A stretch of 64,000 nt of DNA from Escherichia coli (GCF_036507355.1 NZ_AP027877.1); one strand, 5' to 3'; positions 9,001 through 24,000 are shown, counted from the first letter of the stretch. Program-made: the numbers.

Positions 9001-12000
9001 AAACGGTATCTACCTGCTCGGTTTCACCGACCACATGAACCTGATAGCTATGACGGGCATTCAGGGCATCAAGTACCACCTGATTGACATCGGCAAACGT
9101 CAGTTGTATACCCGCGTCTGCCAGCAGTTTACCGATAAAGCCACGACCGATATTACCTGCGCCAAAATGTAATGCTTTCATAGTATTAACCTTCATCAAT
9201 GTTTTTACCCGAGAGGGCTGGGGTGAGGCTTTTCCCTCACCCAAACCCTCTCCGTGAGGAGAGGGGCAGCGCCGGATGCGGCGTAAGCGCCTTATCCGGC
9301 CTACAAGAACGTGCAAATTCAACAAATCGTGATGCATCCTGTAGGCCTGATAAGCGTAGCGCATCAGGCAATTAACCCCACCTTCTCCATGTGGAGAGGG
9401 TGGGATTGGATTACTTACGACCTGCCAGCAGTTCCAGCACTTCATCCACGCTGGTGGTGTGTGCCAGACGCTCGATGACGGACTCATCATCCAGTGCATT
9501 GGTCAGGCTGGTGATAACCTGAATGTGCTCGTTGTTGCGGGCAGCAATACCAATCACCAGACGGGCAATGTCATCTTCTTCTTCACCGAAGCGCACGCCT
9601 TCCGGGTACTGGCAGAACACAACACCCGTTTTCAGTACGCGATCTTTCGCTTCAACCGTACCGTGTGGCACCGCGATAGACTCACCCAGATAAGTCGGGG
9701 TCAGTTTTTCACGATCCAGCATCGCCTGAACGTATTCCGGCTCAACGTAACCGCCTTTCACCAGCTGCTCGCCAGCAAAACGAATCGCTTCTTCTTTGGT
9801 GGCAGCTTTGCGACCGAGGAAGATGTTCTCCGCGCCCAGTTTGAACAGGTTAGCACTGGAATCGTCAAAGCTGTCTTTCAGACTGTCTTTCACTTTCACT
9901 TCGTTTTCAGTATGGCGCTGGGCAGCAACCAGACGTTCGGTCAGGCTGGTGTACAGGCCGCTGTCGAGGAAGTTGGTCAGCGAAATATGCTGTGCCTGCG
10001 GAACCTGGCGCATAGCGCGTTCGGTCAGGTCACGGTGAGTGATGACGAGGTCCACATCTGGCGGCAGGTTGTTGATCGCGCTGTTAGTGACCGAAATCTG
10101 CGACAGACCTGCATCCTGAATTTTCTTACGCAGCACGCCTGCGCCCATCGCACTTGAACCCATACCGGCGTCACAGGCAACGATGATTTTACGTACGTGG
10201 CTCAGGTCGTTAGTCACATCGCCCGCAGACAGCGGAGATGCACCTTTAGACTCAGCTTTCATGTCCTGCATACGACGAGTTGCTGCTTCAATATCATCTT
10301 CTTCTTTCACTTTGCTGGTTTTCAGCAAAATAGCAGAGACAACAAAGGAGACAGCCATCGCCGCACACACACCCGCGATGTTAGCGAAATAAGCACCTTT
10401 TGGTGTCATCGCCAGTACAGCAAGGATAGAACCCGGAGACGCCGGAGAAACCAGACCACCGCCCAGGATAGTCAGCGTGAACACGCCAGTCATACCGCCG
10501 AGGATAACGGCCAGGATCAGACGCGGATTCATCAGCACATACGGGAAGTAGATTTCGTGGATACCACCCAGGAAGTGGATGATTGCCGCACCGCCCGCAG
10601 ACTGTTTAGCGCTACCACGACCAAAGAACATGTACGCCAGCAGCACGCCCATACCTGGACCTGGGTTAGCTTCAATCAGGAAGAATATGGATTTACCCAG
10701 TTCATGGGACTGCTGAATACCCAGCGGCGAGAAGATACCGTGGTTAATGGCGTTGTTGAGGAACAGGATTTTCGCCGGTTCAACAAAGATAGACGCCAGC
10801 GGCAGCATGTCATGGACAACCATGAAGTTAACGCCCGCAGCCAGCATTTTGGACAGGGCTTCAACAATCGGGCCAATGCCGAGAAATGCCAGAATGGCGA
10901 GGATCATCCCGATGATGCCTGCGGAGAAGTTATTCACCAGCATCTCAAAACCGGATTTGATCTTACCGTCTACCCAGCGGTCGAAGTGCTTAATGCACCA
11001 GCCGCCCAGCGGACCTGCAATCATAGAACCGAGGAACATCGGCATGTCTGCGCCGACGATAACGCCCATGGTGGTGATGGCACCGACTACGCCGCCACGT
11101 TCGCCGCCTACCAGCTTACCACCGGTATAACCGATCAGCAGCGGCAGGAGGTAAGTGATCATCGGTCCGACTAGCTTCGCCAGCGTCTCGTTCGGTAACC
11201 ACCCTGTTGGAATAAATAACGCGGTGATGATACCCCACGCGATAAACGCGCCGATATTTGGCATCACCATGTTGCTGAGGAAACGACCAAAGCTTTGCAC
11301 TTTGATCTTAATATCGGATGACATAAAAACACCCCTTCTTATGTTTGCTGTCGCGCAGGCTGGAAGCCCGAGGTTTTTTGTTAATGTGGCGGCAGAGGTA
11401 GCCGGACCTTGTAGATACTGCGAAATCTGGCACTGAATCGGTTAACTGTCCAGTCGACGGTCTTTTGTGTGATATCAATCACATAAATATAGGGGGTAGA
11501 GAGGTAATTGACGTGACGTTCATCACAAAACGCTTGTGTGAAAAAGCAACAAGGCGGCGATTTTCGCTAAAAATGGCATTTAAATGTGAGTAGTGTCACA
11601 TTTTTGTTTTGACGGTTTGTTGAATCTTTGTGATCTGAATCACAAGATATTTTCTTACGGCGTTCACCTGATGTGATCTACAGCATGTTATGCCTTCGTC
11701 ATACAATCGTTATGTAACTAAGCAACTCATCACCTCTAAAAATTATTCTTTGGTGTTATGGCGAGAATCGCGAACCCGGATTATTGTCAAAATATCAGCC
11801 TGACTCCCTTCTGGCTGCCAGCCAAAAAACAACACTGATAAACGTGAATCCGAGGCAGATATGTTTCTAAACTATTTCGCGTTGGGAGTGCTGATCTTCG
11901 TCTTTCTGGTGATTTTTTATGGAATCATCGCGATACATGACATCCCTTATCTGATTGCCAAAAAGCGCAACCATCCCCATGCCGACGCTATTCATACGGC

Positions 12001-21000: not shown

Positions 21001-24000
21001 ATTTCTGGTGATATTCTATGGGATTATTATTTTACATGATATTCCCTACCTGATTGCTAAAAAACGTAATCATCCTCATGCCGACGCCATTCATGTTGCT
21101 GGTTGGGTGAGTCTTTTTACGCTGCATGTTATCTGGCCATTTTTGTGGATTTGGGCCACGCTTTACCGCCCGGAGCGGGGATGGGGAATGCAAAACCATG
21201 ACTCCTCCGTTGTGCAACTACAACAGCATATTGCCGGGCTGGAGAAACAGCTCGCCGACATCAAATCCTCTTCTGCCGAGTAATACTTATGGATTTACTG
21301 ATTATTTTGACCTATGTGGCTTTCGCATGGGCAATGTTTAAGATCTTCAAAATTCCCGTAAATAAATGGACCATTCCCACAGCGGCCCTGGGTGGAATAT
21401 TTATTGTCAGCGGTCTAATTCTGTTAATGAACTATAACCATCCGTATACCTTTAAAGCGCAAAAAGCGGTTATTTCTATTCCTGTTGTCCCACAGGTGAC
21501 TGGTGTGGTGATTGAAGTGACGGATAAGAAAAATACGCTGATTAAAAAAGGTGAGGTGCTATTTCGACTGGACCCGACGCGTTATCAGGCTCGGGTGGAT
21601 CGGCTGGTGGCGGATATCGTTACCGCAGAACATAAACAGCGGGCGTTGGGCGCAGAGTTAGATGAGATGGCGGCGAATACTCAGCAGGCAAAGGCCACGC
21701 GGGATAAATTCGCTAAAGAGTATCAGCGTTACGCACGTGGCAGCCAGGCGAAAGTAAACCCGTTTTCAGAACGCGATATCGATGTGGCGCGGCAAAATTA
21801 TCTGGCGCAGGAAGCCTCCGTAAAGTCATCGGCGGCGGAACAAAAACAGATCCAGAGCCAGCTGGATAGCCTGGTGTTGGGTGAACATTCTCAAATCGCC
21901 AGCCTGAAAGCGCAGCTCGCGGAAGCAAAATATAACCTTGAGCAGACGATAGTGCGTGCGCCGAGCGATGGTTATGTGACCCAGGTACTGATTCGTCCGG
22001 GTACCTATGCCGCGTCGCTGCCGCTACGTCCGGTGATGGTGTTTATACCCGATCAGAAACGACAAATCGTGGCGCAGTTCCGTCAGAACTCCTTGCTGCG
22101 ACTGGCTCCTGGCGACGATGCGGAAGTGGTGTTTAATGCTCTGCCAGGTAAGGTATTCAGCGGTAAGCTGGCAGCCATTAGTCCAGCCGTTCCCGGCGGA
22201 GCTTATCAGTCGACCGGCACCTTACAGACGTTAAACACAGCGCCGGGTTCAGATGGCGTTATCGCGACCATTGAACTGGATGAGCATACTGATTTGAGCG
22301 CATTACCAGACGGTATTTACGCCCAGGTGGCGGTCTACTCTGATCATTTCAGCCATGTCTCGGTGATGCGCAAAGTACTGTTACGCATGACCAGCTGGGT
22401 GCATTACCTTTATCTCGATCATTAATCTTCGCTTTCCGCCGCTTGTTCAGGCCGCAGTTGCTGCGACTGAGCAAGCTGGTGGCGAATTTCACGCAGCATT
22501 TCATCCAGCACATACTGGACCCGCCAGGGCTGGTATTCCCGTTTACGGAAGATAGCCACCAGATCCAGCCACCATTCATACGGGTGCTGAAGCAGGGCAC
22601 CAGCGTGCCGTCTTGCAGGTCGCTCTGCACACTTTTGTCTGGCGCAAACACAATCCCCAGGTGATTTCGTGCCAGCTCCAGCGCAGATTGCGTGTTGTCG
22701 CAAACGTAATTTCCCTTCACGCGATAATCCCGCACCTCTTTACTCCCGGCGACGTTGAAGCGCCAGATATTCGCGTCGTCGATCATCATCGAGTCGATCA
22801 AAATACAGGAGTGATGTTCGAGTTCGTCAGGACGGCTAATAGGATGTTTCTCAAGATAGCGCTGGCTGGCATAAGCGGTTACGGCATATTGTGTAATAAA
22901 ACTGGCAACCAGCGATTCATCTTTTGGTGGAGCGTAGCTGATTAAAACATCACAATCATCAGGAAATTCGACGCCTTCATAAAAGGCATTACGCTCAAGA
23001 TTGCAGGTTTTTAGCGATAAGGTTATATCACCGATATCTTTAATTTTATCGATTACATGTTTGGATAAATAGGTAATTATGCCGGTTGGGGCGTAGATGG
23101 TGACCCGACCACGTTTCTCATGCTTATAATCTGCAATAAAATTATTAAGCTGCTCGTTTCTGTCCAGCATGTCGTTGATGTACGGTAACAGCGCGGTACC
23201 AAAAGGTGTGAGCATCAGCTGCCGGGTGGTTCGGTCAAAGACTTTTAAACCCACTTTTGATTCAAAATCAGCAAGGTATTTGCTGACGTTGGCCTGTGCG
23301 ATGCCAAGTACAGTCGCGGCATGGCTGATATTTTCACTGGCAGCGATTACCGAGATAATTTTTAACTCCCGGTACTTAAGTTGTAATTTTGTCATCGCAA
23401 CAGCCCAATTATATATAATTTTATATATTACTATATAAATATGAATCTTGCACCGGAGAAATTGTAAGCATTACTATGCCGACTCTTTTTTATCTTATTT
23501 TAAAATGGAATACCGGACATGTTAATTAACCGCAATATTGTGGCGTTATTTGCGTTGCCTTTTATGGCAAGCGCAACTGCTTCTGAATTATCCATTGGTG
23601 CTGGTGCGGCTTATAATGAATCGCCTTATCGCGGTTATAATGAAAATACAAAGGCAATTCCCCTGATTAGTTATGAAGGTGATTCTTTTTATGTTCGTCA
23701 GACCACGTTAGGTTTTATTCTGTCGCAAAGTGAAAAAAATGAACTTAGCCTGACCGCATCCTGGATGCCGCTGGAATTTGACCCTGCCGATAATGACGAT
23801 TATGCCATGCAACAGCTTGATAAGCGTGATAGTACGGCTATGGCGGGGGTTGCCTGGTATCACCACGAGCGTTGGGGAACCGTGAAAGCCTCTGCAGCTG
23901 CGGACGTTCTGGATAACAGCAACGGCTGGGTGGGGGAGCTATCGGTATTCCACAAAATGCAGATAGGTCGTCTGTCGCTGACACCTGCGCTGGGCGTTCT

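Follow-up and report, generated by a model that had tools for sequence, protein, structure and literature searches.

The stretch of Escherichia coli chromosome considered here (64,000 nucleotides of GCF_036507355.1, NZ_AP027877.1; the whole stretch is called the window below, and it runs in reverse orientation relative to K-12) carries two pairs of genes, yibI-yibH and yiaW-yiaV, on either side of the block that extends from selA and selB to aldB. Each pair joins a small inner-membrane protein to a periplasmic adaptor of the HlyD/MFP family, and the question that the locus raises is what such adaptors could be doing with no pump gene beside them. The four genes are listed among the uncharacterised clusters of the y-ome (PMC11551758) of the best-studied bacterium, and yibIH and yiaWV are orphan efflux-type adaptors with no known pump. 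As shown below, the small protein, a member of the DUF3302 family, and the adaptor form a nearly obligate pair (about 150 loci with one exception), an association that is new in this analysis. On the whole we incline, without much assurance, to the reading that the DUF3302-adaptor pair supplies the adaptor component of an exporter coupled to the outer membrane, whose inner-membrane transporter is unlinked or interchangeable.

A nearly obligate pair

The yibI gene (11861-12223, plus strand), recognised from its open reading frame (ORF), its match to Pfam PF11742 and its hydropathy, encodes a DUF3302 small inner-membrane protein of 120 residues and is identical to K-12 yibI at the nucleotide level (100%). 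It is followed after 2 nt by yibH (12226-13362, plus strand), which encodes an EmrA-like periplasmic adaptor of 378 residues, assigned from its ORF, profile matches, an AlphaFold2 (AF2) model and Foldseek. At the second locus, yiaW (20960-21283, plus strand; ORF, protein and nucleotide comparison) encodes a DUF3302 paralogue of 107 residues, its ATG preceded by a good GAGGGA Shine-Dalgarno sequence, and is separated by 5 nt from yiaV (21289-22425, plus strand; ORF and protein comparison), which encodes a paralogous adaptor, again of 378 residues. Spacers this short would fit translational coupling within each pair. The initial annotation had described two paralogous modules of the same architecture flanking the selAB-aldB block, each with a small membrane protein, a 378-residue HlyD-family adaptor and a gap of 2-5 bp; the ORFs and the DUF3302 and HlyD/MFP profiles bear this out.

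The small proteins match DUF3302 with an E value of 3.3e-41 over model positions 1-76 of 77, and the family comprises 819 clusters at 50% identity (E<=1e-3). In YibI, two hydrophobic helices are accompanied by a His-rich loop that is conserved (HDIPYLIAKKRNHPHADAIH), and the tail resembles a coiled coil. The loop and the second helix are strongly conserved across the family, with invariant H38-P39 and W49/W59/W65 within the core HDIPYxIAKKRNHPHQDAIHxAGWVSLFTLHxIWPFLWIWA, and the tail after the core varies. No family was returned for the small proteins by an NCBIfam search, and no detectable similarity to any solved channel was found when DUF3302 was compared with the sequences in the PDB; weak, composition-like matches to rhodopsin chloride pumps (E 0.002) were rejected as chance. 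Homology with DUF1656, the family of AaeX and YdhI, was likewise considered and rejected (hhalign probability 0.1% and 0.6%).

An adaptor gene lies directly 3' of the DUF3302 gene in all enteric loci with downstream DNA (75/75), and an adaptor of the same subfamily follows it in 75 non-enteric metagenomic loci, with a spacing that is mostly -1 to +3 nt. The single exception (L108, 4427-7369) is a lone DUF3302 gene located directly after a gene for a CopA-type copper P-type ATPase. This ATPase context and the His-rich conserved loop hint at a cation or metal connection.

A separate subfamily of EmrA-like adaptors

YibH and YiaV match the Pfam families HlyD_D23, Biotin_lipoyl_2 and CusB_dom_1, and the lipoyl (barrel-sandwich) domain, alpha-hairpin and beta-barrel that characterise the HlyD/MFP family are all present (Pfam, AF2, Foldseek). 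In the AF2 model of YibH (mean pLDDT 82.9), helices at residues 2-19 and 28-50 precede the lipoyl domain, the hairpin is formed by helices 97-152 and 161-218 (about 84 Å), and a beta-barrel and a final helix (355-374) follow; the model contains no membrane-proximal domain. The first two helices are hydrophobic and connected by a K/R-rich loop, and in the predicted topology they anchor the N-terminus in the membrane and leave the body in the periplasm. Foldseek ranks EmrA from the cryo-EM structures of EmrAB-TolC (8zar and 8zal) first (E about 1e-20, TM-scores of 0.61-0.66), with MacA, AcrA and MexA also matched, and EmrA is again the best match among PDB sequences (phmmer, E 2e-11).

The best NCBIfam profiles are those of EmrA/EmrK (TIGR00998, 113 bits against a cut-off of 390.8), MdtN (NF007785, 111 against 376) and AaeA (NF007850, 75 against 400). 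Because these scores fall far under the curated cut-offs, YibH and YiaV constitute a separate adaptor subfamily, to which function should not be transferred from EmrA, MdtN or AaeA. The subfamily has hallmarks of its own at both ends, namely a doubly hydrophobic N-terminus (MDLLxILTY...FKIFxIPVNxWT...ALGG...MNYNHP) and a C-terminal amphipathic helix (HVxxMRKxLLRMxSW), and both of these terminal membrane elements are kept down to 30-46% identity. The length of the hairpin is variable, the enteric form of the adaptor having 378 residues and the commonest non-enteric form 319; one adaptor with an apparently frameshifted translation (L086) was left out of the structure alignment.

Genes linked to the pair

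The initial annotation had reported neither a transporter nor an outer-membrane partner near the modules. As to the transporter this holds, since none is linked to either module and homologues of CPA, FUSC, OEP, SulP, PPK2 and DMT are all absent from the 64-kb window, as they are from the 76 enteric loci. As to the outer membrane it does not hold entirely: yiaT (23519-24259, plus strand; ORF), which encodes an outer-membrane protein of the MipA/OmpV family, is located 1.1 kb beyond yiaV and is inherited together with yiaWV, although its product is not a TolC-type channel. A conserved third gene was sought in the enterics outside the Enterobacteriaceae (Serratia, Rahnella, Budvicia, Pantoea and others) and this candidate was dropped, the neighbours being genus-specific, for example a transketolase or a DkgA-like reductase.

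The picture is richer in the non-enteric loci (43 loci flanked on one side by 1.5 kb or more). A NodT/TolC-family outer-membrane factor (OMF) is encoded directly downstream of the pair in six of them (L088, L097, L117, L119, L126 and L140), with a match to the NodT profile TIGR01845 of 275 bits against a cut-off of 210, and these OMF-linked loci span at least three adaptor clades (40-55% identity). A CPA-type antiporter of about 400 residues (Na_H_Exchanger, E 1e-44) adjoins the pair in eight loci (L097, L113, L117, L119, L126, L152, L156 and L158), and in L140 it is found at a distance of 3.7 kb; the complete order CPA-DUF3302-adaptor-OMF occurs in L097, L117, L119 and L126. A half-size FUSC protein is encoded downstream in L093 and L098 (Pfam FUSC, E 2.6e-16), a SulP protein in L088 and a DMT exporter in L129. 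A transporter gene beside the pair is found in a minority of distant relatives only, and neither in the window nor in 76 enteric loci. PPK2 genes are located just downstream of the pair in six loci (L085, L101, L131, L142, L088 and L140), and this recurrence spans several divergent non-enteric lineages.

The association was also approached from the other side, starting from four members of the CPA subfamily on long contigs that were picked blind to their context. For three of the four, an adaptor/OEP cluster is no more than 5 kb away, with the orders CPA-DUF3302-(fragmented adaptor)-OEP (L172), adaptor-OEP-SulP-CPA (L171) and DUF1656-adaptor-Ion_trans_2-SulP...CPA (L173), and the fourth CPA gene (L170) stands alone. 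In L173 (1-933), a DUF1656 protein and an AaeA-like adaptor occur where clusters of the L171/L172 type have DUF3302 and its adaptor, and the roles of these small proteins, though they are unrelated, may be equivalent.

What the pairs might do

The analysis shows how the modules are built and folded, how regularly their genes are paired, which genes are linked to them and how they evolved; their physical assembly, docking onto TolC, substrate and E. coli partner are inferred. Each locus would be a translationally coupled operon of two genes, for a two-helix DUF3302 inner-membrane protein and an adaptor of the EmrA/MdtN/AaeA branch. The DUF3302 protein would bind the two N-terminal helices and the C-terminal amphipathic helix of the adaptor, which would oligomerise as a periplasmic tube in the manner of EmrA, and the pair, supplying the adaptor part of an exporter that spans the envelope, would engage a channel in the outer membrane, TolC in the case of E. 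coli. The inner-membrane transporter would be interchangeable, being unlinked or absent in Enterobacterales, and outside this order the cassette is accompanied by genes for NodT-type OMFs and for CPA-type antiporters, SulP or half-size FUSC proteins. The reading is supported by the near-invariable pairing, the EmrA-like profile matches and fold, the recurrent OMF and transporter neighbours, the outcome of the blind CPA comparison, the purifying selection on both copies and the conservation of yibIH in E. coli.

Published phenotypes, which also count in favour of this reading, are envelope-related, as far as adhesion, urine fitness, phage plaquing and Ca2+-mediated transformation are concerned. 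In uropathogenic E. coli, yibI and yibH are induced in urine, and a ΔyibI mutant has a urine competitive index of 0.33 and reduced adhesion (PMC5404293). Deletion of yibH in Klebsiella pneumoniae lowers plaquing by evolved phages (PMC11796411), and a ΔyiaW mutation is cited in PMC12844161 as raising the efficiency of Ca2+-mediated transformation. An IS1 insertion into yiaW is known from macrophage-adapted E. coli, with yiaW::aph showing no phagosome phenotype (PMC5495878). The initial annotation had left the function unassigned, and so does the literature that was searched, which provides phenotypes and expression data.

Several observations weigh against an exporter. No transporter or TolC-type gene is linked to the pair in the 76 enteric loci, and a convergent gene comes right after the adaptor in about 15/35 non-enteric loci, so that the two-gene operon is the commonest form. 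Where transporters are linked they are heterogeneous (CPA, SulP, FUSC, DMT), and such adjacency would be no proof of physical coupling. The NCBIfam scores mentioned above would bar any transfer of function from the characterised adaptors, and hairpin length differs widely within the subfamily. The R-x3-L-x6-S motif at the hairpin tip, defined in work on MacA and AcrA, is one which we take to mark docking onto TolC and other OMFs; R147 is conserved at >=90%, but the tip of YibH and YiaV is enlarged and off this spacing. In favour of an exporter, on the other hand, the canonical R-x3-L-x6-S tip is found in the OMF-linked adaptors that were checked, those of L097, L117 and L140. Finally, neither an efflux phenotype nor a partnership with an efflux pump is reported for these genes in the literature searched, and ΔyibH is in use as a neutral site for integration, no defect being noted (PMC5852967).

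Could the pair instead work alone? The DUF3302 oligomer would then be itself an inner-membrane channel or energiser, with no separate transporter; if the adaptor were hexameric like EmrA, four predicted membrane helices per protomer pair would give about 24 transmembrane helices, and the conserved His and Asp residues might act as a proton or cation relay. Such a machine would account for the prevalence of the two-gene operon, whose two genes are the sole invariant part of these loci, for the conservation of the DUF3302 loop and second helix and for the lone DUF3302 gene beside a CopA-type ATPase in L108. We nevertheless consider it unlikely, as no adaptor is known to function in the absence of a transporter, DUF3302 does not detectably resemble any solved channel, and repeated adjacency to bona fide transporters (CPA, FUSC, SulP) suggests that, where a partner is visible, it is as a rule a separate protein. 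The surface-related character of the published phenotypes, none of which is drug efflux, could also point away from transport altogether, towards a structural or signalling tether that alters the cell surface, with yiaWV acting together with YiaT under the control of YiaU (CsuR). The targets of YiaU/CsuR include yiaT as well as the waa operon (bioRxiv 2021.12.22.473864), papers citing Shimada 2022 credit the regulator with control of cell-surface properties, and one of them (PMC9308461) describes it as controlling membrane proteins, biofilm and sensitivity to complement and antibiotics; moreover, yiaW-V-U-T is co-inherited (see the counts below). A role of this kind seems to us distinctly improbable, for the proteins have the fold of adaptors that form channels, the outer-membrane genes linked to the pair elsewhere are of TolC/NodT type and not of MipA type, and yibIH has no YiaT-like neighbour. 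In addition, yiaU, along with yiaT (bioRxiv 2021.12.22.473864), appears to be an independent unit, because Enterobacter and Lelliottia have an aldB-yiaU junction without yiaWV.

A bolder form of the exporter reading can be drawn from the CPA and SulP neighbourhoods. The DUF3302-adaptor pairs, and DUF1656-adaptor pairs as well, could be the adaptor cassette of undescribed tripartite exporters built on CPA or SulP ion transporters and NodT/TolC channels, with YibIH and YiaWV using an unlinked transporter and TolC. An antiporter of about 400 residues exchanging cations and protons, or a SulP protein, would here replace the RND, ABC, MFS or PET pump, and YibIH and YiaWV would transport ions or small charged solutes through the entire envelope. 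We regard this as speculative and give it only a small chance of being correct; were the CPA/SulP link to reflect physical coupling, the repertoire of tripartite pumps would gain a further class of transporter. Taken together, the near-obligate pairing, the membrane-embedded hallmarks of the subfamily and, in other lineages, the links to outer-membrane channels and ion transporters lead to testable hypotheses of function, namely dependence on TolC, phenotypes under ion or cation stress, and partners among CPA, FUSC or SulP proteins.

Two old copies, not recombinogenic repeats

The very high identity between the two modules that the initial annotation had claimed exists at the protein level only, with 77% identity between YibH and YiaV (in a gap-free alignment) and 73% between YibI and YiaW. 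At the DNA level, yibIH and yiaWV are 70-72% identical with a longest exact match of 20 nt, yibI and yiaW reaching 79% across the DUF3302 domain, and no homology was found past the gene boundaries when the flanks of the two modules were compared. The differences are distributed 83/46/213 over the three codon positions, with a nonsynonymous divergence (dN) of 0.18 and a saturated synonymous divergence (dS), and both copies are under purifying selection. Neighbour joining puts the YiaV clade outside every other group of YibH-like adaptors from the Enterobacterales, E. coli YibH being nearer to its counterparts in Serratia, Budvicia and Pantoea (79-82%) than to YiaV (77%). Given this position of the YiaV clade, yibIH and yiaWV are ancient paralogues, or one copy was laterally acquired; recent repeats they are not. 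The GC content at third codon positions is 0.48 in yiaW and 0.54 in yiaV, and 0.59-0.63 in the neighbouring genes. A third DUF3302-adaptor module, beside another LysR-type regulator, was seen in two Citrobacter genomes (L068, 2635-5135; L069, 1089-3589).

It had also been proposed that the modules act as direct repeats causing deletion or duplication of the selAB-aldB block. They are indeed co-oriented, about 9.1 kb apart and clearly homologous. However, the minimal efficient processing segment for RecA-dependent exchange in E. coli is roughly 23-27 bp, longer than the longest exact run between the modules, and a divergence of 30% greatly exceeds that at which homeologous recombination is already suppressed by mismatch repair. 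The arrangement is kept across Escherichia and Citrobacter, both modules being found on one contig, about 8-9 kb apart, in E. whittamii, C. youngae, C. amalonaticus, C. gillenii and C. werkmanii, and the gene order of the Pseudocitrobacter loci is the same as in the two-module arrangement. A survey of complete E. coli genomes for rearrangement between the modules found the block intact and in a single place in 5,352/5,426 (98.6%). Where yiaWV is missing (about 30% of strains), moreover, the cause is a cassette replacement beyond aldB and not a yibH/yiaV hybrid deletion. Low nucleotide identity between the modules had been named in the initial annotation as grounds for refutation, and with identity this low and dS saturated, the proposal fails in pairwise alignment as well as in comparative genomics, and we consider rearrangement between the modules highly improbable.

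A variable cassette at the yiaWV end

The two modules differ in their distribution among the same 5,426 complete genomes: yibIH, matched in 5,406 (99%), is core in E. coli, whereas yiaWV, matched in 3,800, is part of a variable four-gene cassette, yiaW-V-U-T, present in about 70% of genomes. Membership in this cassette is shown by the near-identical count for yiaU-yiaT (3,783), by the replacement of yiaW-V-U-T between aldB and sgbE in the E. coli strain Eco889 (L169, 15366-19967) with a cassette of GH127 (frameshifted), MFS and AraC genes, and by the genera Enterobacter, Lelliottia and Leclercia, in which aldB directly abuts yiaU without yiaWV. Homology of the window with yiaWV-less strains stops just past aldB, near REP (repetitive extragenic palindromic)-like elements read from the sequence at 20430-20535, which are palindromic repeats 3' of aldB within the 545-nt aldB-yiaW intergenic region.

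The LysR-type regulator gene of this cassette, yiaU (csuR; 22349-23395, minus strand; ORF and K-12 comparison), is convergent with yiaV. Compared with K-12, it has a 1-nt deletion (nt 805, at about window position 22591) by which the last 56 or so residues are frameshifted, and the frameshifted ORF overlaps the end of yiaV by 77 nt, at the 3' side. Either yiaU is a pseudogene in this strain or the deletion is an error of sequencing.

The yibH-yibF junction and the remaining genes

At the other module, the 70-nt spacer between yibH and yibF (13363-13432) is free of rhs genes, and in K-12 the same interval holds rhsA-yibA-yibJ-yibG-yibS-yibW-yibV-yibU, in agreement with the rhs element that the initial annotation had placed there. 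K-12 departs from the window directly after the yibH stop codon and rejoins it about 40 nt before the yibF ATG. The compact junction is an ordinary, common polymorphism, occurring in 1,521/5,426 complete E. coli genomes (about 28%) and also in Klebsiella, Enterobacter, Lelliottia, Kluyvera and others. RHS core genes are found 3' of yibH in two Citrobacter loci (L035, 10376-14527; L018, 6092-8896), in the same relative orientation as in K-12, and the slot after yibH looks like a recurrent site of RHS insertion or retention shared across genera rather than a peculiarity of K-12. The idea that the compact junction is ancestral was softened, as RHS genes fill the same slot in Citrobacter.

The other genes of the region were identified as ORFs: mtlA (9411-11324, minus strand) precedes the first module, and yibF (13433-14041) and then selA, selB, yiaY and aldB (14139-20415, with aldB ending at 20415) lie on the plus strand between the two. 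The mechanically called aldB ORF (18739-20415) opens at a TTG and encodes 558 residues; it is probably an ORF-calling artefact, since the K-12 annotation begins at the ATG at 18877 (512 residues). A Fic-family gene occurs between yiaY and aldB in some E. coli (L169, 12424-13719), and none is present in the corresponding spacer of the window (18713-18876). Promoter and terminator scans of both loci gave counts not above those for shuffled sequence and were not used as evidence, and an Rfam search of 11000-24500 returned no match.

Comparison with known systems

Among characterised systems, EmrA of EmrAB-TolC is the closest in sequence and in fold, sharing with YibH an N-terminus anchored in the membrane, a lipoyl domain, a long alpha-hairpin, a beta-barrel and the lack of a membrane-proximal domain. 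Sequence identity is only about 20%, however, and YibH and YiaV differ in their two N-terminal hydrophobic helices and conserved C-terminal amphipathic helix, in their non-canonical hairpin tip, and in gene context, a DUF3302 gene accompanying them and a gene for an MFS pump being absent. The MdtNOP system is comparable in that the MdtN profile is among the top matches of YibH and YiaV, with a score far under its cut-off; neither yibIH nor yiaWV has a PET or OMF gene beside it, but non-enteric relatives do form a tripartite set with a NodT/MdtP-type OMF.

The analogy with AaeXAB and YdhIJK (DUF1656 protein, adaptor and FUSC/PET transporter) is one of architecture only, because DUF3302 is not detectably homologous to DUF1656, and FUSC is unlinked both in the window and in all enteric loci. 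In architecture, the order is the same, with a small two-helix membrane protein followed by the adaptor; some relatives of the DUF3302-adaptor pair (L093 and L098) likewise have a FUSC-family protein downstream; and in one ion-transporter cluster (L173) it is a DUF1656-adaptor pair that takes the equivalent slot.

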